From Psammoneis japonica (Eukaryota): a DNA stretch of 64,000 nucleotides. The notes beneath the pieces were generated by a model, which did no database searches, was not told where the DNA came from, and saw nothing but the letters and a program-made list of their open reading frames with translations. The DNA lies in the NCBI GenBank assembly GCA_008632985.1, contig QPGO01000096.1, forward strand, positions 62,001-126,000, in the 5' to 3' direction. Made by a program: the position numbers and the translations under genes. This document shows positions 1-34,150 of the stretch, one piece after another. Every line of letters begins with the position of its first letter. The first letter of the stretch is position 1.

Positions 1-960
1 AACAATCCACCCGGCATTGGATGCTGGGCTTGGGCATGACTTTCTTGAGGGGAAGGTGTGAGCGATGCTGTGCATCATCACAGCAGCATGTTGGCCAGCC
101 ACCCTGCATGAGGCCAGCAATTGGGCGCCAGGACAGTCCACACCAAACAATGATGCCATCTGGAAGACAATGATGAAAATCACTGTCCAAGAGCAGCTTT
201 GCTCAAGGATGTTGCACAAGAGATGTTGCCAAACTGGATCCAGAGGGTGGCAACCAAGCAATCCTCACTGGCAATGTCAACAAGGAGTGTGTTTGCTCTG
301 AAGAAACCACCAAGGCATTTGAAGGAGCAGTGCAGCCAAAATTTTTTTGTCAGAGAGATGCAGCAAAGACACACTCCTTGCCATGTGAGCTGCAGGATCA
401 GAGCCCATCAATGAAGTGTGGCCACAAGAGGCATTGCCGTCAAACAAGGCAGCTTTCTCCCAATCATCAATGGAGTCAGAGGGTCAGAAAACTGTGCAGC
501 CTGCTGGATTGACATTTCTTGCCAGACTGCTTTTGGCACTCTGCCACCTGAAGTGGAAAGTGACCCAGCCCCGTGCACAAAACTCAACAATCTGAAAGTT
601 GTGGACAGATTGCCTTCAACAAGCTTCACAAGGAACGTGCACTGGAGCACAATCTCTCCACAGCATCAGGGACAAAAAACAAGTGTGACCTGTCCTCCAA
701 CCAAGCCACAGACCAACAAGTGGGAAGCACTCAACTGTTGTCAAGCAGACAGTGTGTGGAAAGCCATTGGCAAATCCAGAAAATTGTGAATGGGTGGAAG
801 GCCATGGTCTCCCAAACTCAAACATGCACCCAAGAGAATTGATCTGCATCTGCCTCTTGCCAGGAAGAAGCCAGCATCAGCTCCAGCAGAGCATGCACAT
901 TTTGTTGGGGTGGTTCTGGTGTGTTTGACTGTGCAAGGGGGGGTGGAGACAGTGACAATT
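1..960 (+). mobile_element. Decayed non-LTR retrotransposon, APE-endonuclease region (copy 1)
   Basis: Degenerate diatom-LINE motifs in order: G.G(R)WAW, AA(Y)(R)P read as AACWP at 83-97, GSEPI..WATRGI, WIDIS(Y)QTAFG..PP, KL...KVVDR and RKL(R)MGGRPWSP. Broken by frameshifts and stops. Confidence 0.7.
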
Positions 961-2749
961 TTTTTGCCACAGATGGATGGCTGGCTGCTGCAATTGTTCA
1001 CAAGCTGAATCATGCTGCAGCACTTCATCATTCTTTCATGTGCACGAGACTTCAAAGGTGCCAACAGAGACAGAGGCTCCCAAAATGACATTTGTGGCAA
1101 GCATCTGTCAGATGGTCTCACCCCATTGGGCATCATGTGCATCAACATGGGATGGCTCAGGAGCATGTCCAAAAGGTTGGAGATTGCCATGACCAGCTCA
1201 GCAATGTCAAATTCATCCATGATGCACATGTCAAACCCAAAATGCCACAAGCCCAATTGTCTTGTGTTGCAGCACAATTTGGAGTGTGCAAGACTGCAGA
1301 GACATCAAAAGAGACAGCCCCCCCAAGATGGCAGCATTTCCTGCAAGCATCTGTTGGATGGTCTCAGGTGAGCATGACATTGCCAAAACCAGCACACCAA
1401 CAACATGGGATGATCCAGTGTGTCCAAACAAAGGTGCAAGATTGCCATGACCAGTGGCGAGGCGGGCAACTCAAAATCCATTTGGTTGTCATGCCATTGT
1501 GCATCGTGTGTTGCGCCATTGTTTGTGATGGCATGTTTTTGTGGAGAGCATGAAAAAGAACCAACCAATGGTGGCATGTGTGCCTTCATGAACCAAGGAC
1601 AAGTGCCAGCCCAAAAACCAAAAACATGGTGAAGGCAGAGAGCACCTGCATTTTAGAAACCTTGATTGTGACAAGAGATGCGCCAAAGTGCTTGCCCCAT
1701 GTGGAGCCACCTGGTGTGAACCTTTGATTGATGAAACATGAGGTGGATGCACAGATGGCTGGTGTCAACAGGGCAACAGTTGGAGGAACAGGCCACTGCC
1801 ACTGACGCAGGAGATGGCTTTGAGGAGGAGAGAGCAGTTTTGGTGGGGTCTGTTTGACAAGCACTGTTGCTGACAGCCAACACATCTCCAGCAAAAGTGT
1901 TTGCATCATCATTCAGTGATGGGACAGAGTGATGGAATTGTGCTGCAGGCATGACTGATCAAGAGGAGCTGTGGGAGAAGCTGTTGCTGCAGAAGGAGAA
2001 AAGTGGGATGAAAGATTGTGACACAAAACACACCCAACACATGTTCAACATGGCCGTCAACTTGATTCATCTTGCAGCCCCTGCTCAATCCTGTCATGTG
2101 CATCAATTGACACACTTGATGCCAACTTAAAAGACAAGTTTGAGAACTCAGATTGGCAGCTCATTTGTTCTTCAGCTGAAGAAGCATTTGGCATCACACA
2201 GCCAGGTGATTCTTCACCTCAGAAAGAGGACAAACAGAGCTTGCATGGTGCCATCAGAGAAACAAACTCATGAAGTTCAAATCTTTTGTTTTGCAGCATG
2301 CATCCATGATGCTGGCCAACATGGTGAGCCTGTTCACTGGCCTCTGCTGGTGTGTGGCAGCACAGTGCTGTTCATGCTCACCTGGGAAGCATGATCCAAG
2401 GAGGACGTGGCTCTTTGACTTGGGCAAGTTCAGAGGAACAATGCCCAGAGCATCCATGCATGCAGCACTTGCCCCGATTGTCTGCCCCCCAATGGCAGTG
2501 CAGCCTGTTGCAATGACATCACTCATGGCAGATGTTGCATGACAGCCTGATTTGCATGGATGATCCATGATGTGTGCAGTGAAAGTTTTGATGCAATGCA
2601 AAATGCATCCAAAGGAGTTGAGATTTGACCAGATTCTGCATTTGCACAGCTCCATTTTTTCTGGAGCAAACTGGCTCACAATTTTCACAACAGCACTTTT
2701 GGAGTGCATCTGCACTTTCATTGTGTCTGTTGGGTGTGCAGGTCAGTTT

Positions 2750-4450
2750 TTTCTAAAGGGCATTGCAGTCAGCCACTTTAGAATTGTGAGACAGCTTGGG
2801 CAAACCCCCATGAAGGCTTTGTTGGCAGCGTTCTTCTGTGAGCACTCCACCATTTTTGCAGAACACTGAGACAGGAGAGTGCTTCCAATGGGAAACTTTT
2901 TGGCAGGGACAGCAACTGTTTTCTTGATGGTCAAATGAACAACATTGTCATGATTGGGATGCAAACTCACAATGGCTGACAGTGCCTTGCATGCCTTGGC
3001 AGCAATGTGTGCTTCCGAGTGTTCTGACATGGCAAACAAAAAGGAAATCAAAGCAGCTTCATCAAATTCTGCAGAGCAAAATGTTCCATTGTCAGCACTT
3101 GCCATCTTGCAATTGGCACCAAACAATGATGGCATGCCTTGAGTGCAATGAAGGTGTTGAGGATGGCACATTGCTTGGCTCAGCTGGCGCAGACTGGTTG
3201 ATGGGATGCCAGTGGGTGCAGAACTTGGGACAGCTGATGGGACTGTTGAAGGCACCACAAATGGTTGTGCAAATGGACTGTTTGAAAGAGCTTTGCTGGG
3301 TGCCAAACTTGGGTGACCCAAAAGGATGGGCTTGGCTCTCAACCTTTTTGAATGAAACAAAGCAAAACAGAGATTTCCATGGGTCTTTGTGACTTGTCTG
3401 ATTTGCAACCCATTGTTTGTTCTCTCACATGTTGTGCCCACTGCAAACAATGGATTCTAGAATGCATCTGTGAAAGCACCCTCCAATGCTCCAGCATGAG
3501 GACCAACATGGGCACTGATGCCTCAAGGTTGCTGACAGAGCAGTTGAAGGAAGAGTGGGAGTGCTTGGCAGAGCATGGAGCTGTGCTTGAGCCATGGCTG
3601 GTGAAGCACTGCACTGCCACTCAGAGTTGCACTGGGTGGCATCACTTGGTGCAGGAATGTGACTTGATGGTTGTGTCACTTGAGCTGGGAGGATTGGAGC
3701 CAGTGTTTGAGTCAGCAGGCAGGTGTGTCATTGGATTTAGCACAGGAGGAGAATTTGGCAATGGACTCAGGTCTTGAGCAGAAGAAGGCAATGAAGGTGA
3801 AGAAACCAGCCAGTCTGATTTAGAACGGGCAAAGGCATTGGGTCTGGTGCAAGATGTGACAATGGCAACAAGTGAGAAACAGCAGGCATCAACATGTGCA
3901 AAACTCTGCTTTCTCATGCTGCAGCAATTTTGAACATGTGCACATCAAGTTTGCAGACAATTGGCAGCAATGGAGCCAAACATGGACTAAAGTCTGGCAG
4001 TGCTGGACTGCCATTTGGAGTTGCACTCAACATGCCACCTTGGCAGCACAAGAGTGTGACTCGGTGGTTGTGCAGTGTGATGGTTGGTGGTTGTGGTGCT
4101 TGGAGCCAGACTTGCACTCAGTGACTGCCAAGGTGTTTGTTTTGGATGCTTCAGTGGCTTGTGGGGATGATGCTGGGGCAGGACCAGGCACAAGATTGGT
4201 GATCACCAGATTTGGCATGGCCAATGTCATCATTGGTGGAGTTGGTTTGGACATGGAATTTTGTGCACAGGATGCACCAGGACAAGGATTTGGCTGCAGA
4301 CTCAGACTCAAGTTGGCGGCAGTTGGTGGGAGGCAATGGAGGAGGAGCAGGTGTCCCAGCCCAATGTGGAGCAAGCAAAGGTGTTGGGCTTGATGTGAGT
4401 CTGAGCATGGGCAGCCCTGTGTGCATTTCAACCTTCAAAAATGACAATGA
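2750..4450 (-). pseudogene. Decayed Pro/Ser-rich host-like ORF (PSxxPS stalk typical of diatom secreted or cell-surface proteins); partial second copy at ~9380-10690
   Basis: Minus-strand translations PSTVPSAVPSSAPTGIPSTS, SSPSLPSSAQDLSPLPNSPP and PGPAPASSPQATEAS are spread over several frames. Confidence 0.4.
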
Positions 4451-4899
4451 ACAAGAAATGCACATCAGCCTTTTTTTCAAAACCTCATTCAAAACCTCAC
4501 TTTTTTATGCTGTCAAACTTGCAATGGGCTGCCACCGCTCAGAAACACATTGGGCATGTCACCAAATGCAGAACTGCAACTCAATGGTCATGTCATTTGA
4601 TTGGCGCATCACTCAGAGCAGGGCTTGCACTCAGTGCATTCTGCCTTGGTGATCTGTTGGATGAGGACACTGCTTGATGGGTTGTCTGCTCACACCATTG
4701 TTGCAAACAATGATTCCAGCTCTCCAAAATCCAAAATTTGTTTGGCAGAGCTAGAGATGAATAAAAAATGGCAAGAACCAGGCAAGCCCTGCTGCAATGT
4801 TTGCACCAATTGTGCAAGAATGGAACTCAATTTATTGTCATTTCCCCATTTTTACAAATTTGAACTGCTCTGCCCCAGACAAGCACCATCCAGCCAGCA

Positions 4900-5800
4900 A
4901 TTTGCCAAGAAACCTCCAAGGAAGTTAAGCCAACCATTCTGGAGAGTGCAAAGATGTCTCAAACAAACAAAATGTTTGGGCCATCCTTGATGCTCTTCCA
5001 GACAAGAAAGCAAGAGCCACAGCCATGAAAAAGCACCCAAATGGGTCCGTGGCTCTCTGTCCATCCTTCCATCATGAACAGCACAGAACCACCATCCAGC
5101 AAATAATTTTGCAATGCCCTTTGCATGCACCATGCTGCAAGCCACCCCACCACAGGAGTGTGATGGATGTGGGAGCAATTTTCCATGCAGCGCATGCACT
5201 GGAATGTAGGAAAGGTGGCTCAGTCATCTCTTGACATGACAAGGTGGTCCAATGCAAGTGGCTGGCTCTGACCTTTTCAACAAATCCACCAAGCCCTCTT
5301 CAGCACATCATGACAAAGCTTCAATCAACCCCAGTCACAACTCAAGGAGCTCAGTGGATGATGCCAAGAAGAGCAGGCAAGCCCAAGTCACTGAGAACCT
5401 CTGCAAGTCCAAAGACGGTGACAGAGGCAATGTTCTGGTGTGCATGGCTGTTTTTAAAGATTGACAGATGCTGCATTGTTTGGTGTTTAAGTTGTGGACA
5501 CAGATGCAAAATTGTGTGGCTTGAAGGATCCAGTCCCGGGAGCCCACAAAAAGGAGAAAGAGTGCAAGCACCTCAAACAAGGCATGCCTTGAACAACACC
5601 ATCTCACTTTGCCCTTTTGTGGCATGCTGCAATGGGCCCATCCAGTCAGATGAGTTGATGCCATCCCATGTGGGAACATGATGGTGCCAGCTCATCACTT
5701 CAAATCCATCAAATCAAATGCAGCCATCAACAAGCAGCTGCTGGATGGCAATGATGAGCATGAAAGCATTGCCAACAAGTCTGCCAAAACAACATTCAAG
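4900..5800 (+). mobile_element. Decayed CRE-like non-LTR retrotransposon 3' end (zinc knuckle plus restriction-like endonuclease), copy 1
   Basis: CDGCG..FS..HALECRKGGSVI.(R)HD (5160-5245), DRGNVLV (~5420), then KK..KHL..C..HF.PFVA across frameshifts. Confidence 0.7.
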
Positions 5801-6049
5801 TCAATGCCACGGTGCACCATGAGGTCTCTTGAACACACAAGCTCAAACATTTAACAGAAGAAGACAAGAAAGGAGGAGCAACTCAAGGAAGTGCACATCT
5901 GTGGAGCAACTCTTCTGTCCTCACCAACATGAAATCTGGTGAAAACTGCGGTGATCTGTGCACCACCAACAAACATGAGACAACATTGCACGGCCTTTCA
6001 AAACATCAATGGATTTGCCAACTTTGAAAAAGACCACATGAAGAAGGAG

Positions 6050-7260
6050 AGAGCATTTTCAGAGGAAGTGTTCAAGAAAAGAGCATCAATGTGATGTGTT
6101 TTGCATGAACAAAACTGGCTGGTTCTGGAGAGCCACACCACTTGAGACCAATGACCACTGGCTCAATTCTGTGGGTTCTGGGAACTGCCACCCAACACCT
6201 CTGCTGCCTGCAACATGCATGACAAGCACTCCAGGAGGCGCGGTGATCATCAGAGGTGTGCACAAATCATCTGTTGTCACTCGCACATGGGCATTTGCAC
6301 ACTCAGCACGCACATGCAATCATGGCTGCTGAGCAAGCTGGCCACCAAGTCATCTCCGAAGGCAACAGTCCATCTGGTCCAGGGTGCTGCTGAATGGACT
6401 TGGACGTGAGATTTCAAGGAAAGGTGTGAGAGCCGCACTGTGCATGGTGATGGCATGTTGACCCTCCTGCATGGGTGCAAGTTGGGCATGCCAGGGCAGT
6501 CCACATGCAATGCTGGTGCCATCTGCAAGATGAGAACAATGGTCATTGTCTGAGAGCAGCTTGGCTTGAGGACCTTGCACCAGATGTTGCAAGCTGGATC
6601 CAGGGTGACAACACAAAGAAATTCTTGCTGGCAATGTCAACAGGTGTGTTCACTCTTAAAAAAACAACACCAAGGCTTTTGAAGAGTGCAAGGAGCAGCA
6701 CAACCAAGAAATCTTTTGTTTGAGAGACATGGCAAAGACACACTCCCTGCCATGTGCTTTCCAGGATCAGAGCCATTCAAACTGTGGGCCACAAGAGGCA
6801 CTGCCTTGTGACAAGGTGGCTTCTTTTCCCCAGCTGTTGATGGAGAGTCAAAGGGTTGGACAACCACATGGCCTGCTGGATTGACATTTTTTTCTGGGCC
6901 ACTTTTGGCAAGTCTGCCACCTGAAATGGAATGTCGCCCAGCCCGATGCACAAAACTCAATTGTGATCCAAAAACCACATGGACAGATTTGACAAGCTTT
7001 GCAAGAGGAGCGCAATTGGAGCAGCCACAATCTCCCCACTGCAGCATGATCAACAAAAAACAAGCAACCCCTGTCCTCCAACCAAGCCACAGACCAATGA
7101 GTGGAGCGCCACCAACTCTCTTTGAGCAGAGGCAGTGATGTGTGGAGAGCCAGCTGCAAATGCAGGAAATTGTGATTGGCTGAAGGCCATGTTCTCATCC
7201 CAAACTCAAACATGCATCCAAGAGAATCAATCTGCTTCTCTCACTGGGAAGTTGGCATCA
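6050..7260 (+). mobile_element. Decayed non-LTR retrotransposon, APE-endonuclease region (copy 2)
   Basis: WTWT(R)FQGK, MA(Y)(R)P read as gca tgt tga ccc at 6453-6464, GSEP...WATRG, CWIDI, LPPE..RPAR.TKL.CDPK; aligns with 1-960. Confidence 0.7.
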
Positions 7261-10200
7261 GCTCCAGAGCACACACATTCTGTTGGGCTGAGAGGCTCTG
7301 GTGTGCATGACTGAACAAGGGGTGGAGGCAGCGATGCCATTTTTTTGCCACAGGTGGTGGATGGCTGGCTGCTGTGATTGCATGCAAGCCAAATCACTCC
7401 ACACTGCATTTTGCACATGCAAGACTCCAGAGGTGCCAACAGAGACAGGCCCCAAAAATGACATTCACACTGCAAGCATCTGTCAAAGGGTTCCACCCTG
7501 TTGGGCATGTGCATCAACATGGGGGATGGCCCAGCATGTCCAAAAGGTGTGAAGATTGCCATGACCAGCTTGGCAATGTGCAAATTGACTGGTTCTTGCC
7601 AGGTGTCCAAATTGGTGTCCATGATGTGCATGTCAAACCCAAAGTGCCATGAGCCAAGTGTTGCATTTGGCATGTGCAAGACTGCAGAGACTTCAACAGA
7701 GACAGCCCCCCAAGATGGCATTTGCTGCAAGCATCCATTGGATGGTCTCACCCCCACTCCCCCCCAAGCAGCCCAACATTGCCAAAACCAGTGTGTTGAT
7801 GCAATCATTGATGCATCAGAAGTGTTTGTTGTTGTTCAGTGATGTGACAGTGAATGGAGCTGTGCTGTGGACATGGCCAATCAAGAGGGGCTGCAGGAAG
7901 TTGTTGCTGCAGAAGGAGAAAAGTGGGACAAAACATGCTCAACATGATCACCAGCTTGGTTTGTCTCACAGCCTCTGCTCTCAACCCTGATGTGTGCATT
8001 GATCAACACGCTCATCAACACCACAACTTCAAAGACAAGTTCAAGAACTCTGATTGGTGAAAACTTTGTTCTTCAGCTGAAAAAGCATTCAGAATCATGA
8101 TGTGGCCAGGTGGCTCTTAACCTCAAAAAGAGAACAAACAGAGCTTGGTGCCATCAAAGAAACAAACTCACAATTTTCAAATCTTTTGTTTCTTTCCAGA
8201 GGGCGTTGCACCAGCCAGCTGCTTCACAATTGAGAGAGCTCAGACAAACCCCCATGGAGGCTTTTGGCAGAACACTTGAAGCTCCCTGACAACAAGCCAA
8301 CATGACAAATCCATGACAATGTGCAGGCAATCAGTGCTGAGCCAGTTCAGCACACATCAATGACAAGCCTTGGGGCATGCTCCAATGATGAATGCCCCAG
8401 TGTGGACCCACCCCCCATCTGAAAGAAAGAGAGTGAAGCAGCAGTGCAAAAACTGAAACGATGGCATCAAAGCACGTGGCAACATTGCAAGCACTGTGAC
8501 TGTCATTGCAGTCCACTGACACACACACAGAATGTCTTGTGAGCAGTCAAAGATTGCTTTCTTGTGATGTTGGTCTTTCCACTTCTGTTGAAAATTTTGC
8601 AAAGAGTGTTTCAAAAATTTGAAGCACATCAGCATCGAAAGTTGACAGAAATCAAGAGTGCCATCAAAAGATGGGGCTCAAGCTTTCACAAGCTTTTGGA
8701 GTGAAGTGTCACTCAAAACATGGAAAAGGGGGTGGAGTTGATGCACCCTCCCTTTTTGCAGCCTCCACCAATGTCTGAGAAAGAGGGTGTCTGCCAGAAG
8801 GAGCCTCCATCAATTCAAAAAAATTTTCCAGTGTCAGAAGCGAGATTCAAAAAGAAGATGAAATGCATTGCTCACACACACACACCAACAATGAAAGAAA
8901 GAAACTCAAATTTGCTCCCACACATGGCTGTTGCCAGCTTTGTCCAGCTGAGCCACTTGAGTTGTGTCACATCAGTGTTGATGCTTCCAGCACCTGGCAT
9001 GATCACCACATCATTGGCAGCAATCACACCTCCTCTCAATTGGAGCCCATGACACACTGCACACAACAATCCAGCAATGTGCCATCTCCTTCAGTGCCAA
9101 TGAGACCAATGGCCAGTGGCTTCCTTGTGACTCCAGTCTTTTTTGTGCTCCACTCATTGAGCAAGGGAAGAGCCTCTGGAGCATGCCATTGTGAAGAAAC
9201 AATTGATGGTTGGCCCCGCAAGGCTTCACCCACCAGGGAACTTCATTGACTGTTGAGGCTCCCTCCACCCCACAACATTGGCACTGATCTTGCCCCACTC
9301 ATGTGTGCTGACAGAGTGCTTCCCATGGCAACCTTGTTGTTGGTGGGGACAGCAGCTGTTTGCTTGGTGGTCAGATGAATGACATTGCCGTGATTGGCTG
9401 TGCAAACTCACAATGGCCAACAGTCAAGCAAAACAGAGCTTTCCTCCTTGGCCCCACAAAAGGGCTGCAAAAACAACATGAGTCTCTGACGGGAACATGG
9501 GTCTTCATGTCTCTGACCTGCAACCATCATTTGTTCTCTCACATGCTGCATGCACCCACTGCAAAAAAAAAATGAACTCTAGAACACAACTGTGAAAGCA
9601 GTCACCCACACTCCAACATGAGGACCAACATTGGCGCCAATGCCTCAAGTGGGTTGTTGCTGATGGAGCAGTTTGGGGAGGAGTGGCAGGGCTTCTTCTT
9701 GACAGAGCATGGAGCTGTGCTTGAGCCATGGCTGACAGGGACTGTGCTGCCACTCAGTGGGAGATGCACTGGGCAGCATCACTCAGCTCAGGAGTGTGAC
9801 TTGCTGGTGGTTGTGTTTTTTGAGTTGGGGCTCCTGGAGCCAGTGTTGGAGAGTTGGGTGTGTCGTTGGTGGAATCAGCACAGGAGGAGAGCTTGGGGCT
9901 GCAGCCAGTGCTGGAGAGTTGGGTGTGTCATTGGTGGATTCAGCACAGGAGGAGAGCTTGGCAATGCTGGGCTCAGGTCTTGAACAGGAGAAGGCAGTCA
10001 AGGCAGAGAAATTGGCCGGTCTGACTCAGAACAGGCCAAAGCATCAGGTCTGGTGCAGAATGCAATGATGGCAACAAGTGAGAAAAACAGGTGTCATCAT
10101 GTGGTGTGCAAAACTTCACTTTCTCATGCTGATGATTTTTGAATGCACACACAAAAAGTTTGCAGACAATTAGAAGCAATGGAGCTGAACACAGACTGGA

Positions 10201-11369
10201 GTCTGGCACTGGACTGCACCACTTGCAATCCTGCTGGATGTGTCACTCAGCACAAGACTGTGGCTCAGCACTGGTTGTGCAGTGTGAGTTGGTGCAGTGC
10301 GCTTGGAGCCAGACTCATGCTTGGTGGCTGCCAAGGTGCTTGCCTCAGATGCTTCAGTGGGGTGTGCAGATCATGATGTTGGGACAGGACGAGGCACAAG
10401 ATTGGTCATCAGATTTGGCATTGCCAGCATCATTCAACATTGACAGAGTGGGTTCCAGCATCAGATTTTGTGCAGGATGCAGGACAAGGACAAGGATTTG
10501 ACTGTGGACTTGGCTCAGACTTGGGTCAGTGGCATTGGGAGGTGATGGAGAAGGAGCAGGTGTGCCAGTCCAATTCAGAGGAGCAGGCAAATGTGCTGGG
10601 CTTGATGCAAGTCTTGGGGTGGGCAGTCCTGTGGGCATTTCAACAACCATTGAAAATGACAAGCAAGAAACACATGACAGCCTCTTCTTCAAAACCTTGC
10701 TTTTTTGTGCTCAGTCAACTCACTGCTGTGGAGCTGCACTTGAGCCACAGCTCGGCACTGGGCTGTTGCTCAGAAGTGCATTGGGCATGTCACTAGATGC
10801 ATCACAGCAACTCAGTGGTCATGTCATTTGAATTGGTGAGTCACTCAGAGCAGGCCTTGCACTTGGTTGCTGCCAAGGCATTGGTGTTGGAGTGCCAGAC
10901 TCTAAGCTGGGAGCAGCAGAGGTGGCACTCAGTGTTCTGCTTTTGTGGTCAGCCCAACCAGGGCTGCTTGATGGGTTGTCCTGCTCATGCCATTGTCAAC
11001 AGAACAATGGCAGCACCAGTTCTCTGAAAATTTAAAATTTGTTTGGCAAAGCTTGAGACAAATGAAAAATGGAAAGAGCCAGGTGACAGAACATGACGAC
11101 ACTGCCCACAAACCCTGCTGTGATGTTTGTGACAATTGCACAATGACAATGGAGAGCTCTGCTGATCTTGCAGCCATCACAATTTAAAAAGCAAGATTTG
11201 GGTGTTGACAATGTTGTCATTGACTCAACTTGTTGTCATTTCCCCATTTTGACAAATCTGAGCTGCTCTGCCCCAGACAACTGTGAATTGAGCACCCTCA
11301 TGAAAACTCATGCAATTGACTTACTGTGCAGTGCCGTGTGCTGCAGTTTGAGTTGGTGGTTCACCGAGA

Positions 11370-12330: not shown

Positions 12331-13185
12331 TGTGTGCATCGCCAACAAGTCTGCCAAAACAACACTCAAATCATTGCCACAGCACACAAAGCACACAACA
12401 ACAACTGCCTTTTCTGCCTCAGGCAGCACAGCCCCAAGACCTGCACAAAATGCTGCCAACTCTGTCTGTGCTCTTCCTTGTGGCTGTCGTGTGCACACAA
12501 CATGCAAATTGGTTCCCTCAGTCTGTTCCTTTTTTGAGTGTGGCCAGTTGCCACTTTTTTTTTGCTTGAGTGCAGCTGAATGGCATGTGTTTTGCGTGAC
12601 TTTTCCCGAACTTCATTCACTGCGGTGCATGCTTCGCTGTGGTGAAAACAGCAAACCATGAGCAGTCTGTGACACAGGGGTGGTCCACATCCACCAACAC
12701 TCTCATTCATTTTATGTTCCTTGTGCATCAAAGCTCTTACATGCATGAAAAGTTTGTAGACGACAAGCTGCGTTTTTGAGAGAAATGTGCTTCGATCGCG
12801 GTGCCTGATGTTCTCGTTTTCGTGAGCGATCGGCGATCGGCGATCGGTTGTCGGTTGACTTTTTACTCCTGTTATTCAAATCCACAGTAATTTTAGGATG
12901 AACGCGGGGATGACCTCCCATAAATAGTTTTGATGTCCTACGACGAAATGCGTCCAATCTACAGGTTCTACGTAGCAACCGGAAAGTGCCTGGCCACCGT
13001 CCGGCATTTTCGCTCTCTTATGGCGCGCGCATAGTGGCAATCCTGAAATCTTTTTTTCTTTGCTCGTCCGCGATAGTTGTTCGTTGTTCATGCACTGTTG
13101 CAAACGAAAAGATCCTGTGCCGTCGGCTAACACAGTGCTTCACCGCGTCCATTCTAACAAGGAGAACCCTACAAACCAGCTAAGT

Positions 13186-22500: not shown

Positions 22501-25500
22501 CCCTCTCCATAATTTCTGCACCGTAGTCGCGGCACCATCCGTTCTCATCCGGCTCGCCCGCATGGCGGAAAGCTTCATGCGGAGGATACTTTGAATCATA
22601 ATAGCTGCTCCCTTCATCGTGAGGAAGTACGTGCGAACAATCTTGCCTCGAACAATCTTCTGAATCGCACTCGCAGCAAAGAAGAATTTGTCAGACCTCA
22701 GCGCCTCGATTCTGTCAAACGCTTCACGTCGGAGAAACACCTTTGTGCGTCCTAGCTGTAGACCAGCGACCGCACAACGGGAAGCAAAGTCCAGGGACAT
22801 AAATTCCTCTTCGGAGGTAGGACGAGCGACATTGCGCCCCTCTGTTTTACCTCCTCTCGAAGTTCTGCCGTTGCTGTCCCTTTTCTTTCGTTGCTTATCT
22901 TCTGGCGTCTTTACTGAACTTTCGACAACCAAGGAAAAGGCAGGACCTCGTGGACCTGTCATTTGCTTCGTTTGCTGATCGGATTGCCGCTGTTTGAAGC
23001 GATAACGGAATGAAAATGTCAGCGACACGAATCGATTCAACCTTTAATTCGAATATTCAATAGTAACTTACATGAGCATATTTCGGAGACGACAAGAGAG
23101 TTTCTCTACGCTTCTCCTCCATCTCCAGAAGCGCAACAATGTGCTGATGGTCGGCTTCCCACAAATCAAATGCAATTTTCGAAATGAGACGCTTGAGCTC
23201 GGACACTTGTTCGGTGTTGGACCGAGGCGAAAACATGGGAGACACAGGGCTAGTATCTTCAAAGTCACCAAGGATGTAGTATCGAGCCATAAACACATCG
23301 TGGGCGTATCGTGTTGGGTAGCCTGCACGACTTACACGGACAGCTTCCAGTACACCTCCACAACGAAGCTGTTCGACAATGTTTTTGGGTTCAAAGTAGT
23401 CCGGAACTAACTCATCGTTCGGTTTGAGGCAGCGAATGTAGTGGGGTACGGTAGTGTCAATCCTCGCACGAAGCGTACGCAACTGCTCGGAGAATTGGGC
23501 ACCAACAGACTTGGTGGCAATTGTGCCGCGTCCCTCGCGATCTTCAGATCGGACATACTTTTGAATGTCCGAGATGAGGTGAAAGTCCGAAGACGTCAAC
23601 AGGTCAGCGGAGGCAGCAGGAAGCTGGTCCTTGTTCTTTTCGAGCCATGAATCCGTCGTGTACTCTACGTAACCGGCGTAGTGTTCAATGCTAAACTTGT
23701 AGTCCACGCGTTGCGACGAAGTTGCGTGAAATCTAGGATGAGAATCGCACCGACCGTAAATGTACCGAGTGAATTTCTGATCCGTACTCTTTGGAAGGAT
23801 ACATTGCTCATCAAGGAGAGCGAGAATACCCCTGTGCTTCTTGTCAATCAAATCAAGGACGTCCTGGTTGTCGGGGAACGAAATGAACTTCCACAGGATT
23901 CCCTCCTTCTCGTATTCCACTTGTTCAATCTTGAAGACAAACTTGTTGAACTGCTGCTGCAGAGCTTCGTTCGTGTAGTTAATACAGAGCTGCTCATAGT
24001 TATTTATGTCAAAGGTTTCAAAACCAAAAATATCAAGCACACCGATGGATGCTTCAGAACGCATGGACGGGTCCTCCTCGATACTATCGTTCACTCGTTC
24101 GACAATATAGTCAAACGCCGCGCCATAGACGGCCTTGATCAGGGCCTCGCATGCCTTGGTCGATTCGTCAATATGAAGCGGCTTATGCACAATCTCATTT
24201 CCAGCCAGAATAACTCGGGTGGTTAGAGAGGCAGCGAGCCCCTCAACGCTCACACCCAAGAGCGCCGCAGTCTTCAAAGCAGCTTCTGTCTCATCCAAGG
24301 TGCAGGACTCTCCATCCTTAGAGGCGGTGAACGTAATGTTACCAGCAAAGAGGACAGCCATGACAAGGCGCATAAGAGCCTGAACGGTTTCTGGTGAAAA
24401 GCCAATCGTAATCTGAACAAGTAAGAGAGTTTTAGAAAAACAAATTAGTCGAGAAACAAATGAAGAAAAGAAAAAACGCGACGACAAAATCCACTCACCA
24501 TTGCGTCAAGCATTTCTTGATGCGTCACTTCATCGCTCACACCGTCGCGGCGATCATACGTCCCACTCTGATTAAGCAATTTGAAATCTTCGAAGTGAAG
24601 GTTGTCAATGTAGAATTGCTCCCTCTCCGCCTTGGTAGCGCTGGAGAGAAACTGATAAAAGACGTGGTAGTTCCGTTCTCCTGCTGCTTGATGGATGAGT
24701 CGAACCTTTTCCAATAGATAAGTTTCAATTGAAGCGCCAGACAGCTTTCCAGACCTTGTGAAGCTAATGTCAATATATTTTCCAAAGCGGGAAGAGTTGT
24801 CGTTGCGGATCGTCCTTGCATTTCCAAAGGATTCAAGAATCGGGTTGCTCTGCAAAACTTCCTGTTCGATACTGACGTCTTCGACAGCCCCCTTGGGAGA
24901 CTTACGGGGCGAACTGCTTTGCATTTCAGCTCGCTTGCGTGAAAGCATGGCAAAGTAGTTCATGACAATCTTGGTCGTGACCGTCTTTCCCGCGCCACTC
25001 TCCCCAGAAACCAAAATACTCTGATTGGTCGGATTGTCTAGGAGGGCAACTCGACCCTTGCCTCTTGATACCTGACGTGACTGTCCCATCAGTGCAGAGT
25101 TCTCAAGTCCCCTTGTCATTGCACGGTATGCATCATCGGCAGTCTGGTATACGTGTGGTGGAAGCCTTTGATGAGACACATCTCTTCTACTGGGACGACG
25201 CTTAAAAGGCGTAACCATCCCGTCGACCCCTTTCTCGGTGTTTGCTCCGACCCCCTTCTCCCCCTGAATTCTATAGCGATCCATCATTTCAGACGAATAG
25301 AGACCCATTGGTTTGAACGGGTTGACCGCAATCAGGATGGGACCTGTGGCTGTGTAGATAATATCCGCATCGTACCTGAGTCGCAGGGCGTGCAGAATAG
25401 CAGGTTCGTGTAAATGCGTTAGCCCAATCAAATCGTCGACTCCTCCAACCACTGATTCGTCTACTTTGTTGGAAGGACTCGCAATAACTCCCGCTTCTGG

Positions 25501-25824
25501 GTCCTCTCCCGCCAGATGGAAGCTCGTAGGCAAATTTCTCAGCTTAATGTCGTCGTGATCTGCAGTTTTGAGCTGTTCTGGATCCACCGTCACCACCACT
25601 TCGAACTGGTCTCGCTCATCGTAGTAACTCGAGCGCTGTCGAGCAATACTCGGTCTAGAAGGAGTCATACCCATTGTCATCTCAATGTTTGGGTCGTCCC
25701 TGAGGGTCAGGTTAAACATATCAACTCCCTGCACCGCAACTGGTGTTTTATCCGTAATAACAGCCGGCACCCATCCCCAGTGAGATCCGTCAGAGCGGAG
25801 CCATACGTGCGCTCCTACCTCCAT
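19517..25824 (-). CDS. Myosin heavy chain: motor, IQ neck, ankyrin repeats and a C-terminal protein-kinase-like domain. Exons 25824-24499, 24412-23072, 22989-21325 and 21241-19517
   Basis: P-loop GESGAGKT, switch I NDNSSRFGK, switch II DIFGFE, QLRCGGVLEAVR, GLQLGRTKVF, IQ motifs (IQKIVRG, IQSILR, VQKLWRG, IQRSYR, MQAIYRG), ankyrin G.LPLH repeats, kinase-like IHGD..HN and DIWAYG. Three GT-AG introns preserve the frame. Confidence 0.92.
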
Positions 25825-27094
25825 GGTTGATACCTTAGTTTGCTATCTGGTCGTGTAGCAGAGCGAGTAAGCAAGAGACTAATGAGTACGGTGGGTTGAA
25901 TAATAATCAATGCAATCGGTCGACTTGAAGTCGCATCACATGCAACATGCAATCGATCGATCGCGACAAAAGAAAGCGGGGAAATCGGGGAAAGGAAAAA
26001 ATTCAGAGCGACAGTTGAACCACGCGACTCTCCAATCAGAATGCTCCAACCGTCGCGGGCACGAACGACCGCCGTACAAATCTACACAGGCAGTACGCAA
26101 TCTTGCTATATATCCAAAAGCTACAACAATGAATATAGAAAATAACCGTAAAGGCGTTGTCAAGTCCCACGGGATGGCTCGTACGGAATTCTACGTGCAT
26201 TGAGTCGGGAATGGCGAGGCGAAAAGTACCGCTCAACATGCCGTTTTGCTTCGCTCCAAATCGTTCCCTTCACGAAGCATCCTTTTCGTTTTTAACAATA
26301 CTCACCTCCTCTACCTCTCTTACAATTCAGTCAATCTCTTGCTTTATCGAACGTCCCTTGGTTGATGCGGTAAGGCGGTGTGTCACGTCAAGCGTGATTG
26401 TGATTATTTTGTGTGCATTTTTTGGATGGCGCGCCAAGGAAAATAACGTTTTTTGTGTCTCAACGGACGTTCGATACTCAACAGAAAAATATTTATTAGG
26501 CGTTAAATACGTTCATAGCATATTAGTTCTTTCAATAATGTATCAATATGTGACCTTTCAAAAATGAAATATGATTGATATATGAATGATCATTGACTCA
26601 GATACTGGAACACTAACAGAAAGGCAACGTCTTCTCTCTCCTCACATTTTGCTTGGAATGCGAAGATCATCTCGTTCGAGGCAATTCTTGTGTATTATTA
26701 GAGTTCATTAAGGAAAAGTGGTGGAAAGCACAAGGGATTATACACTGTGCTTTTTCATTATTTCTCTCTAGAGAGCACTCAAGACTCATTCTGTTCTTTG
26801 TTTTGTTGGCAACGTGTAACATATGCAGTTGTAATGAGACTTTTCCGTATTGCAATCGATACAACACTTTTAAAAGAAGAAGGCGTCGATAACTTAAACA
26901 ATAGTTCCATAAAGCGATTTGATGAGTATCCAAAAATATTGTCTAGCTAGTCATTTGCTGATACAAGTACTGTGAGGGACAGAAGAATCAGGCAAAAGCC
27001 TACATAATCAGTATCAAGCATTTTACGCAGCAAGCAGAGATTGATTTCTGCACTTCCACAAATGACGCCAACGAATATGGAATCAACGTCTTCT

Positions 27095-28037
27095 CTATGC
27101 ATTGACTTTCAGAAGTGAGGCCAGGGTTTCAAGAGTAACTCCGCCTTCTTTCTGGTTCCCTAGCTCATCCACAATCATGTCAGCTCCCGTAAAATCCTCG
27201 TTGCCGGTGTAGGAACTCTTGGTGACAAGACACGCAATTCCGGCCGCTTTTGCTGCGCCTAAACCAATATGGCTATCCTCGATAATACAGCATCGTGCCT
27301 TGTCGAGTTTCATCGTGTCAACAGCCATATTGTACACGTCAGGTGCGGGCTTCTTGGCCTTTACCATGTCACCTGCAAAGATTTGGAATTTTGCGGCACG
27401 CTCTGGCCCCATGAGAGTTTTGACAATATTGGATACCGCTTTTTCGTTGCTGGTGGAGCACACGGCAAGTTTGACACCAGCCTCGATAGCTTCATCCACA
27501 ATCCTCAACACCCCAGGACGCAATGGGATCGATCCAGCATCAATTAAATCCATAAAAATATCAGTCTTCCGCAAGTGTAACTCCTTCACTTTGTCTTGCC
27601 TGTTTTCTGGAGGAATCGATTCGGGCCAGCCCACTTCGTTCCAATGAGCAGTCATTCTCTCTTTGCCGCCTCCAACCTCCAAGAGAACGCCGTACCTATC
27701 AACTTCCCACACGTCGTCAATTCCATTCTCGCGAAACGCTTGATTAAACGAGACACGATGACCGTCACGCTCAGTATCAGCCAGCACACCATCACAGTCA
27801 AACAGAATGGCCTCTAGCGCAGCTTCCTCCTGTGCCTTGAGACATAGCGATGAGCTACTGCAGAGAGAGAAACAATCGACTTTAAATACTTCACGTAAAC
27901 AGCAAAGCTCGGCGATCTGCATGCAAGAGATCCGAATGATTTGTGCCTCACCTCTGCTGAGAATGTCTACGGCTTGTCGATGTGAAGGCATTGACACATG
28001 AGAAGGAGAGCGTCAAGAAAACAAGAAAGGATTTCAT
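27095..28037 (-). CDS. cbbY: Plastid-targeted CbbY-family HAD phosphatase (xylulose-1,5-bisphosphate phosphatase-like). Exons 28037-27952 and 27857-27095
   Basis: FDCDGVLADTERDGHR, GGGKERM, LRPGV, KKPAPDVY and IEDS.IG motifs. N-terminus MKSFLVFLTLSFSCVNA-FTST is a signal peptide plus ASAFAP-like Phe. Intron 27858-27951 joins the exons in frame. Confidence 0.9.
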
Positions 28038-28357
28038 CGTCTGATACACCCAGTTCACAGTAATATGAGAGTTGCTCGAAGAGACGGCCGAGAGATGTAT
28101 GGTCGATGCAATGAAATTTGATAAACTAGGGGCCCTACTCCAGTTTCGAAGCAAGACTTCAGCGAATGCAATGAAGGATGCAGATTTATGTTCATCCTTT
28201 CACGGCTCATCCGCTCCCACGATGTGGTGGCCATCATACGGTACATGCCATGGCATGTTGTTTCGGTGTGTGACGTCAGTGGAGAATCTGGAAATCATTC
28301 ACGTTTGCGCTCGTTTTCTTGCCCTCACGCACGCAATGATCAGCCCGAATGACGGAC

Positions 28358-28377: not shown

Positions 28378-28379
28378 TG

Positions 28380-31300
28380 ACTAAACATGTAGTTTGCATG
28401 CAAATGTGTCACTCTCGAATCGGTTTCTGTTAAAAAGATGCATGTCCAAGCATCACACAACAATTCTGTCCAAAGATTGGCAACTGCGTTCTGTGCCAAG
28501 TTGAGGACACTTGATCAAGTTTGCTCATGACACACACCAAAGAGCACCGCACCAGCCATGTGGCGCCGTGTGCAAAAAAAAGTTGTGGTGGAGGGTTTTT
28601 CCATCCCCCCATTCTGTGCATGGAATGCAGAGAAAAGGAAGCAGCAGATGAAGATCAAGGAATGCTGAAGAACCTGATGACTTGACAGGAGAGACAGCAA
28701 CACTCATCTCCTGTCAGAGAGGCAACCTTGAGCACTTTAGAAGCAGCCAAGCCAGTGCTGATGCATGGCGCCAAAATCTGAGAAACTGGCCTGCACTTTG
28801 CCACACTTTTGCTCCACAAAACTGGAGGCACCCCGCTGACACTTTAAAGCTCTTCAAGGCACTGCTGCTGAAGGCAAGGTGCAGGCTCCTCTTTCAAGAG
28901 AGCAGCTGAAGTTTTGCACCAGAGCACAGCCAAGTGTTGCTGCGCACACTCTCCTGCTGCTCTGCGCTGTGTTTGAGGAGTGGCGCAAGCCTTGGGATGG
29001 GACTGCAGCCCAATTTGAGCTTGCAGAGGAACAACAAGGAAGACTTTCTTGGTTTTTTGGGGTGGTGGTGGCATGAGAGGGTTGGCGGCTCTTCTTGGAT
29101 TGTGGTCCAATCCAACAAGGAGGTGATGTGCCTGTGCACTGACCCCCTTCTCAAAGCTGGCTGAGAAACAGCAAGTGGTCATGTTGGCAAAATGAGAAAA
29201 AAAATGATGTGGTGACAAGCATGTAAAAGCACACTGCTGCTTGCCCCAACTGCGTCATCGCAAAGAAGCAAAACCAAGCTCATGAGCAGACACAAACAAT
29301 TTGGAGGTGTGTCTGTCAGACATTGTGAAAGAGCAGCAAGTTGAGAGAGGTGCAGAAGAAAGTGCAAACAGCTGGAGCTGCAAAACAGATGTCAGGAGTG
29401 ACAAAATCCAAGGACAAGAAGAGAGACGCAGGGTCTTGAGAACCAATTTTTGGTGTTTTGGAGGCCACCCAGCTCAGATTTTGCAACACAGCACAATCAA
29501 GAGAACTTTGCAAGGAAAACATGATCACAAACAATGAGAAACACCAGGGGCTGGCCTTTGGCACTGGCTCTTGAAAGCTGGTTGAACAAGACAGAGCCCC
29601 GCCAATGCTGCAACAAGAAGGGGAAAATGCAAGCAAAGAATTGGCTCCCACCACACATCTGGCCAGCTCATGTCTGGCCTTGCATCTGAGGAGCAAACAC
29701 AGGTGCTGGCATTTTTGCACTTGGCATGGTGGCTGAGAAAGCTCATCGGAGTCCAAACTTGACTCATCTCCTGGCCTGCCATTTGTGTCTCAGAATGACG
29801 ATGATCTGCTCAGCAGCTTTTTACTCTCTCGAGCATCTGACAACTTTTGCAAGCTTGTGCCACTTTCACAAGGACTCATGTGCCCAGAGGGGTGCAAAGA
29901 AAAAGAACAACAAAGCAGTGGTGGGGTTTGTTTGGCAAGAAAACAAAAACAACAAAGCTGGGTTGCTGTCAGAGACAGTGACTGTGAATCTGATGTTTGC
30001 AATGAGTTCCCAACTCTTCAGGAAGTTGGAAGCCACTGCCCTCCTGTGCATGCTTTGGCATTTGAGGACAGTGAAGAAGTCTGCAGACAGTGTGTTGCTT
30101 TTTTAAAGACGTTGCAGAAGGCTGTTGTTGTCAGACAAATGGTGCTGTTTGTGGGTCCATCCAAGTGCACAATGCATCTTGTGCTTTCTGTTGGAGAGTG
30201 AGTGTTGTGTGTGCTCAACATGGCTGCACACACTCACAGAAATGAGACAAACAACCTCTTTTTTGGTGCAACCATGTGTGGATCTTGCAAAGATTGTCTT
30301 TCCTCATTGGGCATGAAGTGCAGAAGTGCAAGCAGAGCTGCTTTCTGCACATTTGAGAAAGGCAGCTGCAAGAAAAACAACTCTCCAAAAGTTTTTTGGG
30401 CCACCAACATTTGCAGGAGTGTGCAGAGTTTGCCTCACATCCCACAGCAAAAGGCCACAACCAAAGCTTTTCTTTGTCGATGACATGCAAAACAAAGCCA
30501 AAAGGTGCTTGTGCCACTCTCAAAGACAAGTGCCACAAGACAAGTCAGTTTGAAATGCCAGTGCTGAGCCAGTGCACAAAATGAGCAAGCAGCAGGCTTG
30601 ACAGCTTGAGTCTCTTTTGTGCACAACTTGGGTTTGCCAAGCATGTCTCTAGAGTGAGAGCTTCACAGCAGTGCTTTGATGCTGAGCTGTGAAGCTTGAG
30701 CTCCTCTTGGCAATGGTGCTGCTGCAAATGGCTTCCTGACCCCAGCATCTGAAGGATGATCACAGCAACATCTGGGAGATGCCAGCAGTCTGGGTTTTTC
30801 TGCAACAGCCAAGAAACCACAAATTTGGAGCACCAGGTTGTCCCTCAATGTTGTCACATCCATTGCAGTGAGATTTTGCCACAGTTTTTTTCTTCAAAAT
30901 TTTGCATTCTGATGCTGCAACATGATCCCACCAACTCTTCCTTTTCTCCATCATTTCTGTTGGATGTCAGTGTCGTCCATTTCTTCATGCAGCACTGCCT
31001 TTTTGCTCAGTGTTTTCCCACCCAACATGGTGCACTTTTTGTCAAAAATGACATGCCCCCCAATGGGTGGCATTTTTCATCACATCCACATGCTTCATGT
31101 TGGCAATGAAAAATGAGTGTTCATGTCAGAACATGCTCCATGTGGGCACTCTTCCAGCAGAAACAAAAGAGTGCATGTCAGCAGCAGAGGCACCACAAAG
31201 GTCCACAGCTCACAGCATCCTTCTGCAAAAGTGCTTTGGCAATGGATGAACTGTGAGCACCAAACTGATGTCAAGAGACAGGACAAGCAGAGTGACTGGC

Positions 31301-34150
31301 AACACACTGCTGGCACTCAATGAAAAAGCATTTTGTTTGTCAGAACAAGCAGCACATGTTTCTTGGGCTAAACAGCTGACACAAGGCATTTGACCTGCGG
31401 GCAATTCTGGTCGCTGTTGACCTTCATCATTGAGTTTTCTTTTTTTTGCATGCTTGTCATTCTGGACCAAAGGATCCCTTGCCAAAAGTGGTTGCAAAGA
31501 ATGCTTTCCACGAAAGATTGCTCACAAGAGCACCTTCCTTTTCAACCCAAACCATGTGCTCCTCACGCAGGCACCACTGATGTCCCACGTTGATTGAAGG
31601 GTTGCCTTTGGCCTGAGACATGAGAGTTTGCCATGAGATCTGTTTGAAAAACAGGATCATTCAACCCCCCTTGTCACAAGATCAACTTTGGAATGCTCAA
31701 CAACAGCTCTGGAAGCATTGCCCTGGGTGTCCACCAGAGTGCCATGATGAGATGAGCCAACAGGCTTGACAGCTTGAGCCTCTTTGCGCACAACTTGGGC
31801 TCACCAAGCATTTCTCTGGGGTGCTGAAAGCTTCGCAATGGTTTGGTGCTGTGTTGCAAAACTTGAGCTCCTCTTGGCAATGGTGCTGTGCAAATGGCTT
31901 CCCAATCTCAGCATCTGCCAACTGTCTGGGTCTTGTCCCCACAGGCAAGAAACAACAAATTCAAAGCAGGTTGTCCCTGATGTTGTTTTATTTTCTGCAG
32001 TGAGATTTTGCCACAGTTTTCTCTTCTTCAAAATTTTGCATTCTGATGTTGCCCCCCAACTCTCCTTTTTCTCCAGCATTTCTGTTGGATGTCATGCATT
32101 TCATGTTGTCTGTTCTTTCTCCATGCATTGCTGCCTTGTCCAGTGTTTTCCCAACAACATGGTGCATTTTTTGTCCAAAACAAGATGCCCAATGGACTGC
32201 ACTTTGCATCATCCAAAGACTGCCACACTTCACAGTGATCATGCAAATGAGCAATGGTGTCAAAACATGCTCCTTGCAGGCACTTTTCCAGAAACAATGA
32301 GTGCAAGCCAGTGGAGGCACAACAAAGGTCCACAGCCATCACAGCATCCTTCTACAAAGGGGCTTTGCCAATGAACAAAACCTGAACACAAAACCCCAAT
32401 GTCAACAAGAGACTGGACAAGCAGAGTGACTGGCAATGCACTGCTGACACTCAACGAAGCATTTTTGTTGGCCAAAACAAACAGCACATGTTTGGGCCAA
32501 ACAGCTGAAACATGCACTGAAATCTCAAGTTGATTGAAAGGTTGCCTTTGGCCCAAGACATGAGAGTTCATCAGGAGGAAGTCCACCATGTCTGGTCTGC
32601 TCCAATTTTCTTGATTGCTTTGGCAACAAAATTGTGCACCAACATTTGGTTCATCTGGGCCATCTGGATTGATTTTGCATGGCTTAACTTGAGCCAAGAA
32701 CCAAGTTGAGTTTAGCACATTTGGAAGGTGATGGATCCCCCTGAAGAGAGAGAGAGAAAGGCCAGCTCTTGGATCAATCTCAAGGGGGTGTCTCTTGACA
32801 ACAACAGGGCCGTCAAAGAGAGAGGCTGTCATCATGATGAGGAAGGCAGCAACATCTACAACATTGATTTGCACACCATTCACCATGACAGCAAGGGGTC
32901 AGAGAATCTGTTCTAAACTTCTTGCTGCTTGACAGCTTCAAAAGCAAGAGTCATTTTGTTTGAGTGGAGAGCTGTCCAGTGGGAAGCAAAAACTCCTGGT
33001 TGAGAACCATGCAAGCTTCTCGAGACTTTGCTGCCATTGACAAAAAGGACAACACTGGCTTGAGCCCTTGCACGGCATGCATTGGATTTAAGAACTTTTG
33101 AGCAAGGGGGCATCTTTGACTTCTTCTTCTCCCATCCCCTGAAGTTGAGTCTGCAGCAATGCTGTGCCCCCCAGAATCCTTGACAGGCTCTCTTGCTGTG
33201 TCTCTCCACACATTTTTGACCACTTCAGTTGGATCTTCCCTTGTGGCTCAAGTGGAACTCAAACAATTCATTGTTGTGCACAAGGCCTGTGGTGTGAATG
33301 CCAGGCTTGACAAAGGAGACAGCATTGAATCAAGGCTGCTTCAGTGTTGGCACAACAGCACAAAAGAGGCCACCAATTCAGTGGGTCCTCTTGTTGCGAT
33401 CACTCTTGCACTCATCAAGTTTTTGCAGAAACAAGCAGCTCTCATGCCATCCAGTGTGTCAATGTTGAGCACAAATGACCAAGTGGTCTTTGTTGCTTGT
33501 CTGCTGGCTTTGAAACACAAGAAGAGAGCCAACCTGTTCCAGCTCCAGGCAATCTGTGATCCATCATGTGAGATGCCAGCTGAAAATCACATTTGGCACA
33601 ATGAACACCTTGTCACATTTGGCACAATGAACACTTTCAACTTTGTGCGACCACTCTTCATTTCGAAAATGGAAAGGTGAGTGCACATAAAAAACTGAAT
33701 TTTTTATGCACACTCACCCTTCAATTTTGGAAAAATTGAAATTGAAGGAGTTTGTTTTGCCAAGTGCAAAAAATGGATCAGTGGTGGATCGGGGCACCTG
33801 GTGTGCGCGACATCTGGAGCTGCGCGGGGCACTGCCAAGGGTGCATGCTCTCATGGGTGCCGTGGCTCTTGTTGTTGCATTTTACAAGAGCCAACCAGTC
33901 AATTGAAGGCATCTTTTGATGGATCTGAAGAGTGCACAGGTGTGGTCATCCTCACTCTCTGCTTTCTCGAGCACAAAGCAGTGGGGGGCCGAGGAAGAAC
34001 AGGAGGAAAATGTGCTGCAGCTCAAGCTGTGGAAACGACAATGCATCCCGTCATCAATCACCAGTTAAAATTGAAATCATCTCCAGCTGAAAACCAACAT
34101 ACAAACATCATGGTTCTCCCTTCGTGTCATTTCAGAGCAGTGCGGAGTGC
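28380..34150. other. Hypermutated repeat domain B (unidentified decayed element)
   Basis: CpG and TpA are rare. Tyr-free, protein-like remnants are present (e.g. 32260-32886 minus, 33159-33680 plus), but the family is not recognised. Confidence 0.85.
30590..32570 (+). repeat. Diverged tandem duplication, unit ~0.95-1.17 kb (30590-31630 vs 31760-32570)
   Basis: caggcttgacagcttgag...cttgagctcctcttggcaatggtgctg occurs at ~30593 and ~31761; tgattgaa.ggttgcctttggcc..agacatgagagtt occurs at ~31591 and ~32531. Confidence 0.85.

Follow-up and report, generated by a model that had tools for sequence, protein, structure and literature searches.

Why should two copies of the same non-coding DNA differ again and again by a whole dinucleotide, with CA in one copy where TG stands in the other? 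The question is raised by a 64-kb stretch of the diatom Psammoneis japonica (GCA_008632985.1, contig QPGO01000096.1, positions 62,001–126,000, forward strand), referred to here as the window, which belongs to a 91.4-Mb assembly in 597 contigs. A first-pass annotation of the window cited five such pairs and traced each of them to a palindromic CG or TA dinucleotide that was hit on opposite strands in the two copies. In dead repeat DNA, nearly all TA steps and most CG steps have been mutated to CA or TG on either strand. The best overall explanation, to which we give a probability of roughly 60%, is that two context-specific transition processes acting on silenced repeat DNA yield the reciprocal CA/TG sites.

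Reciprocal CA/TG sites in duplicated DNA

The five cited pairs are real. All ten motifs lie no more than 1–2 bases from where they were first placed, and alignment of the repeats on the forward strand sets the two members of each pair opposite one another. Three pairs link the tandem units of a decayed ~6.4-kb duplication, unit A (25–5810, +) and unit B (5903–12380, +), which are 70–91% identical in collinear blocks; the part of unit B that matches unit A is 6395–12380, and 5903–6225 matches DNA just left of the window. Pairs 1 and 2 have their CA side at 186–208 and their TG side at 6549–6571 (tcCAag 186/tcTGag 6549; ctCAagg 202/ctTGagg 6565), while pair 3 has its TG side at 2974–2980 and its CA side at 9415–9421 (ggcTGac 2974/ggcCAac 9415). 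Pair 4 (1107–1358; gtCAga 1107/gtTGga 1353) falls in a short internal duplication (~1040–1124 versus 1285–1366), and pair 5 (gccTGag 31611/gccCAag 32551) in a ~1-kb duplication at 30,581–32,568 (+; 30,581–31,383/31,752–32,512 and 31,575–31,628/32,515–32,568).

The 11 aligned duplicate blocks (3,785 gap-free columns, 738 mismatches) contain 275 doublet differences, of which 120 are CA/TG, compared with 8.6 expected from single-site transition rates. This excess disposes of the possibility, raised together with the initial claim, that the doublets are simply coincident single transitions. The six other transition–transition doublets occur 5–14 times each in the same blocks and the CG/TA doublet is absent (0). 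Changes between units A and B run in both directions (61 CA>TG, 46 TG>CA).

Five gene-free blocks depleted in TpA and CpG are interleaved with genes across the window. Block 1 (1–12,650) starts ~400 bp left of the window and has 28 TA and 74 CG in 1–12,400; block 2 covers 28,550–34,000, block 3 45,520–48,150, block 4 52,600–55,800 (with a TA count of zero in 53,000–55,800 and CG partly retained at its left edge) and block 5 60,750–62,900. Pooled, the blocks hold 49 TA in 24,934 bases, with observed/expected (o/e) ratios of 0.03 for TA, 0.137 for CG, 1.8 for CA and 1.9 for TG; pooled gene regions (33,504 bases) have ratios of 0.588 for TA and 1.03 for CG. GC content is level (48.4% in blocks, 48.8% in gene regions), AA o/e in the blocks is not below that in genes, and block edges are sharp, with the transition occurring within 100–300 bp. 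Tyrosine codons are nearly absent from depleted DNA (0.03–0.05% of six-frame residues versus 2.05% in a gene). The single feature first drawn over 181–32,570 has to be divided: it joins two depleted blocks (~1–12,650 and 28,550–34,000) with ~15 kb of untouched genes between them (12,900–28,300), which form an internal control. Tandem repeats outside the blocks have 5 CA/TG among 17 doublets compared with 0.46 expected, and hence provide no clean control.

Protein searches of the organism's own genome with 2–520 (+) and 3378–4631 (−) returned only the two tandem units, and a third copy of the block 2 piece 29,404–31,753, on contig C131, is equally depleted. As these searches found no intact parent of the duplications, the five cited sites cannot be polarised individually.

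Direction of change

Direction is provided by dispersed repeats of which some copies remain rich in TA. The window copy of one ~1-kb family (46,337–47,230, in block 3) is converted, and copy L013 of this family retains TA and CG steps. At the TA sites of L013, 29 other copies carry CA or TG about equally; at 39 of 72 TA sites each of the two states occurs in 20% or more of these copies, compared with 3 of 73 CA sites and 4 of 65 TG sites. Copies L029–L031 keep 0 of 70 TA and 25–29 of 40 CG with background transitions of ~6%. A second repeat is fully converted in block 1 (7895–8732, +) and has a TA-rich counterpart, L085. Between 8,069 and 8,732, TA sites have become CA (15) or TG (12) and CG sites TG (12) or CA (9).

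Another TA-rich copy of this second repeat lies in the window at 44,300–45,480 (+), with paralogs L007 and L008. Relative to 44,600–45,480, L008 has converted 27 of 32 TA and 10 of 55 CG at 7 background transitions in 429 (1.6%), which by simple arithmetic is at least ~115-fold over background for TA and 6–12-fold for CG. At three sites (45422, 45871 and 45927) the window has TA, whereas L007 has TG and L008 has CA; L007 is alignable only right of ~44,750 and its doublet count against L008 is not used. These three-state sites and the 39 mixed L013 sites bear out the earlier claim that both strands were hit and that copies were hit independently.

A classification of 7,058 doublets in 276 pairs of 24 depleted copies, which are related and so do not represent independent events, places 67.8% at sites that are TA in L013 and 9.6% at sites that are CG. 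Another 9.0% fall where a TA-rich copy other than L013 has TA or CG, 11.9% fall where each of the six TA-rich copies has CA or TG, and 1.7% lie elsewhere. Together, the comparisons show that TA changes to TG and to CA with similar frequency and before CG is lost. Treating CG and TA as one process, as was done initially, is not supported; their rates differ, with TA lost first and much faster.

L013 (L013:1200–2420; G000:C36:352,950–354,170) is a ~1.2-kb TA- and CG-rich copy that lies within a fully depleted block and is sharply bounded at either end. Among the 40 copies scored, those nearest to it reach only 84–87% identity, and L013 is either a very young insertion with a source outside the assembly or a protected copy. 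Internal sub-repeats of 150–170 bp occur at L013:1681–2401 and in the window at 44,956–45,249; both families are non-coding, and the L013 family ends in a hairpin with 23-bp arms. These features may be reminiscent of non-autonomous Helitron-like elements.

Strand and sequence context

On each strand, A>G reaches 0.416 after T compared with 0.069–0.086 after A, C or G. Relative strand rates by 3' base are 1 for TAA, 1.5 for TAG, 1.7 for TAT and 3.6 for TAC (62 sites), and at 27 of 35 mixed sites the change fell on the strand with TAY (Y, pyrimidine; p=0.002). TA steps that survive in the blocks have TAY on neither strand in 34 of 49 cases and on both strands in none, compared with 208 of 1,291 without TAY in genes. 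Neighbouring sites changed in the same direction in 508 of 1,095 cases (0.464; shuffled 0.488 ± 0.013), that is, without strand coordination.

Continued change after duplication

Simulations with varied ancestral states and 10–11% background transitions produce CA/TG flips at 9–11% of sites from a depleted ancestor, at 22–28% from a gene-like ancestor and at 0.2–1.3% without context hypermutation. The 30.6–32.6 kb pair has 13 flips at 118 sites (11.0%) with background transitions of 11.3%; this equality fits a depleted ancestor, so that ancestral TA or CG is not needed for pair 5. In the 6.4-kb units, 107 of 614 shared CA/TG sites differ (17.4%) at a background of 11.0% (p=8e-5), a value between the two simulated cases, and their ancestor was partly depleted. 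Flips at CA/TG sites follow from the short life of TA and CG, because an ordinary transition at a CA or TG step gives rise to TA or CG, and in half of these cases the step ends in the opposite state. Both flip rates require that the process continued after duplication, as the first-pass annotation had claimed. Its derivation of every pair from a palindromic CG or TA is right for most doublets, which lie at TA or CG sites, and fails for the 11.9% where every TA-rich copy has CA or TG. Many doublets reflect continued flipping and not an old palindrome.

Flips also separate two versions of the locus. Block 1 is matched at >99% identity, and at about the depth of neighbouring genes, by contigs from X1, a public DNA run; X1 may be the assembly's own sample and is thus probably a second haplotype, not independent support. 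The differences considered are 40 of 115 places, ending at 11,709; the range 1–11,709 is taken as nearly complete, since for the four long contigs wholly within it these places account for 18 of the 19 differences counted contig by contig. The 40 bases represent 33 events, comprising 6 CA/TG flips (217–218, 847–848, 1113–1114, 4459–4460, 10130–10131 and 10896–10897), 10 changes between CG and CA/TG, 2 between TA and CA/TG, 9 other transitions, 5 transversions and 1 other doublet. Independent transitions would give 0.006–0.023 flips in this part of block 1, a comparison made without a gene control, compared with the 6 seen. Exchange with the paralog was considered as a source of the flips and rejected; of the 5 alignable sites, X1 shares the state of the paralog at 4459 alone, and there without the neighbouring differences, and site 10896 is unalignable.

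In a steady-state model, the CG route gives 0.02–0.25 flips (at 20-fold, 0.06 flips and 7.9 visible CG polymorphisms, with 10 seen). The TA route gives 3–6 flips and 2–8 visible TA only near 1000–3000-fold with a 2–3-fold C>T bias. This rough model would need TpA to be ~1000-fold hypermutable, and the X1 flips suggest that the process is recent and active now. Run X2 covers the genes and almost none of block 1, with two GT..AG skips, and carries no evidence on silencing. At 3,149–3,259 in block 1, contigs of both runs match and have loose CG- and TA-rich ends, perhaps from a living gene related to the decayed piece.

Proposed mechanism

As the comparisons show, TpA is changed to TpG or CpA by A>G on either strand, site by site and separately in each copy. 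CpG decays more slowly to TpG or CpA, a pattern seen in the repeats for which deamination of 5-methylcytosine is the likely cause. TA and CG both drain into CA/TG, so that copies can resolve one site oppositely. The rates show that change continues after saturation, with CA<->TG exchange at about the single-transition rate, even between versions of one locus; the probable route is that C>T turns CA into TA, which is then removed to TG or back to CA. The TpA change, the drainage into CA/TG and the continued exchange very probably hold. The TpA mutator may be a TadA/ADAT-family DNA adenine deaminase that is guided by silent chromatin, acts in episodes and prefers TAC over TAT, TAG and TAA. We consider that the odds slightly favour a DNA adenine deaminase as the mutator.

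The genome has 9 PF00383 matches and 4 PF02137 matches at 2 loci. Judged by motif, its deaminase genes are TadA-like (C38:7368), ADAT2-like (G000:C26:119851) and two of A_deamin type. The two separate A_deamin (ADAT1/ADAR-type) genes are L120 (C40:112.7k) and L121/L122 (C79:344.6k), and both have HAE and PCG motifs; the second gene copy is a noteworthy candidate. C5-methyltransferase (PF00145) matches number 27, a large set for one genome; they occur on contigs C43, C10, C59, C78, C27, C297 and C301, and five span the whole domain, some with stops. In the diatom Phaeodactylum tricornutum, CG methylation targets transposons (PMC9998398) and CG is the most mutable dinucleotide (PMC6604790). Early TadA-derived editors prefer YAC (PMC7056309, PMC12703980).

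Several points weigh against this explanation. The absence of strand coordination does not fit a processive single-strand deaminase, and A>G at TAY would look identical in sequence to T>C at RTA (R, purine). Judging from their motifs, the deaminases found look like housekeeping proteins, with none linked to the process, and methylation and silencing of the blocks are presumed. Kinship of the copies makes the 7,058 pair counts non-independent. The 1000-fold figure is derived from 9 background transitions, 40 of 115 places and a single run, perhaps made from the very sample that was assembled. The rate is also far from uniform, given that L013 keeps 74 TA inside a depleted block and that several copies are half converted.

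Comparison with known systems

In the chlorarachniophyte Bigelowiella natans, 231 of 302 nuclear mutations fall in two viral inserts (Mettrop et al., bioRxiv 10.64898/2026.01.13.699255). Nearly all are TpA>TpG/CpA, at ~1000-fold above background in a subset of lines; the targets are integrated nucleocytoplasmic large DNA virus and virophage DNA, and an adenine deaminase has been proposed, with the enzyme unproven (10.64898/2026.01.13.699255). In its TpA confinement and regional pattern the process in the window works like this system. A>G/T>C is confined to TpA in both and gives TpG and CpA, and both have TpA-poor, CpA- and TpG-rich clusters that spare genes, which in B. natans include transposon domains. 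Activity there is uneven in time, as half-converted copies suggest here. The ~1000-fold rate is measured in B. natans, compared in the diatom with a bound of at least ~115-fold and a value of ~1000–3000-fold from a rough model on 33 events. The systems also differ. B. natans is a rhizarian studied in mutation-accumulation lines, with two viral inserts that have lost TpA partly (Rho 0.45), whereas the diatom targets are non-coding repeats and decayed duplications near saturation (TA o/e 0.03). The diatom further combines TpA loss with CpG loss, which keeps GC level, prefers certain 3' flanking bases, and has CA<->TG flips that separate copies as well as haplotypes.

Typable targets in the diatom are non-coding dispersed repeats, and the scanned parts of blocks 1 and 2 have no protein family, with no Pfam match over the cut-off in the six read-through frames of 28,400–34,000 or in the + frames of 1–1,400 and 6,300–7,800. 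In the main text of the B. natans preprint, the words diatom, stramenopile, CpG, trinucleotide and flank are absent (10.64898/2026.01.13.699255). Searches of open-licence PMC and bioRxiv literature yielded no account of repeats losing TpA in diatoms or other stramenopiles, and the only related account they gave is that preprint; the accessible portions of PMC7884421 and PMC11884799 do not describe such loss.

Repeat-induced point mutation (RIP) of ascomycete fungi is similar in its repeat-confined, dinucleotide-specific transitions on both strands, its sharp edges and its destruction of coding capacity. RIP changes C:G to T:A mostly at CpA and makes TpA, whereas the diatom process destroys TpA and makes CpA and TpG. 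The blocks accordingly have no TpA gain (TA o/e 0.03, CA 1.8, TG 1.9). Both tandem units are converted, as RIP of duplicates would have it, yet the 44.3–45.5 kb copy is spared while L008 is converted. The process is not RIP. CpG decay through 5-methylcytosine on DNMT5-methylated diatom transposons (PMC9998398, PMC6604790) resembles the CG>TG/CA change seen here, which accounts for about one-tenth of doublets; it cannot remove TpA and is the slower of the two processes in the blocks. TadA-derived editors make A>G changes in DNA with a YAC preference (PMC7056309, PMC12703980), and TAC is the best context here. Those editors are engineered and act on single-stranded DNA in an R-loop, and in the diatom CAC is not hit (A>G after C is 0.086).

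A bolder reading, which we advance tentatively and with the odds somewhat against it, is that a still-active adenine-editing defence clears new TpA ~1000-fold above background with TAC preferred. With CpG decay, this would create a GC-neutral CA<->TG equilibrium that scrambles copies after saturation. The rhizarian counterpart would then make it an old analogue of RIP across the stramenopile–alveolate–rhizarian (SAR) group, driven by a natural double-stranded-DNA adenine deaminase.

Alternative explanations

Changes made site by site, with no coordination between strands, look like those left by a symmetric mark as it decays. In silent chromatin, TpA could carry a modified T or A that mispairs or is mis-repaired to give T>C, as 5-methylcytosine gives C>T at CpG, without any direct editing enzyme. 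The joint disappearance of TA and CG from the same blocks and the 27 methyltransferase-domain matches agree with this explanation, which we nevertheless regard as unlikely. The TpA rate appears to be one to two orders above the CpG rate, which is high for passive decay, and to our knowledge no T or A mark gives clean transitions at such a rate. A search for Tet/JBP genes had no match, which is weak evidence because the control was likewise silent.

Targeting could instead resemble that of RIP, with homology pairing of duplicates at a sexual stage, and not a chromatin mark, triggering an A>G mutator on both copies. This is improbable, although all aligned block pieces are duplicates or dispersed repeats, block edges are sharp, half-converted copies suggest episodes, and diatom DNMT4 is related to RID (PMC9998398). 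One partner escaped in the second repeat family, where 44,300–45,480 keeps its TAs and its close paralog L008 lost 27 of 32. Flips also go on in block 1, where the best paralogs are only 66–77% identical over long stretches, and the hypermutable region of B. natans is single-copy (10.64898/2026.01.13.699255).

An error-prone polymerase of the pol-eta type could fill repair gaps at methylated or deaminated cytosines and erode TA beside CG, which would tie the loss of both to the same blocks. Such polymerases make A>G changes at WA (W, A or T), and thus at AA as well as TA. A>G is raised only after T, which excludes a WA-type signature; after A it is 0.069, compared with 0.078–0.086 after G and C, and AA o/e in the blocks is not lower. 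Copies with complete TA loss also keep most CG, there are no strand-coordinated tracts, and the polymerase explanation is very improbable. That no special TpA process exists, with CpG decay alone (which does give CA/TG doublets, 9.6% of those classified), GC-biased gene conversion, paralog exchange, selection or assembly error as the cause, is refuted by the polarised TA counts and has a negligible chance of being right, given that 67.8% of doublets are at TA sites, that GC content is unchanged, that simulated flips without context hypermutation reach 0.2–1.3% versus 11–17% seen, that independent X1 contigs bear the same depleted sequence, that the X1 allele differs from the paralog at 4 of 5 alignable flip sites, and that a derived TA-rich state, the one condition under which the TA counts would not refute it, is made unparsimonious by three-state TA/TG/CA sites.

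Implications

A mutator for which the literature searched gave a single description, in a preprint on a rhizarian alga, is extended by these results to a diatom, where it is saturated on ordinary repeats. Given that the X1 flips suggest present activity, this diatom could serve in the search for the enzyme. Both the biology of genome defence and base editing would have an interest in a natural DNA adenine editor with such specificity. CA/TG doublets make repeat copies look more diverged and mask transposon proteins, so that repeat ages and annotations will be off in such genomes.

Other features of the window

The untouched region between blocks 1 and 2 encodes an RTEL1-like helicase (14,879–19,126, +), a myosin (to 25,842, −) and a HAD/CbbY-like hydrolase (27,095–28,012, −). 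Among the 120 matches listed for the HAD protein, those that are named are diatoms (Ditylum 82%, Seminavis 79%, Thalassiosira 78%, Trieres 76%). The window also encodes an HA-domain protein. An 'AYRP' motif proposed at 83/6464 was not confirmed. A 2,636-aa open frame (34,396–42,306, +) appears by eye to be rich in acidic 'DDFFDALRKL'-like repeats, after which come ankyrin-like and kinase-like segments that resemble the tail of the myosin gene at 19.5–23 kb. Another open frame of 544 aa (56,137–57,771, +) has internal duplications and no Pfam match; its repeats are among those outside the blocks with 5 CA/TG doublets compared with 0.46 expected, so it may be lightly hit. At the left of block 4, TA is gone and CG partly left in 52,600–53,700, a state that sets in within ~100–400 bp of the end of a long open frame (51,669–52,580, −); a repetitive Pro-rich open frame at 52,903–53,460 is without a Pfam match. 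The right edge of block 2 carries a short palindromic element (33,535–33,839) with at least 35 genome matches, many of which lie at block edges.

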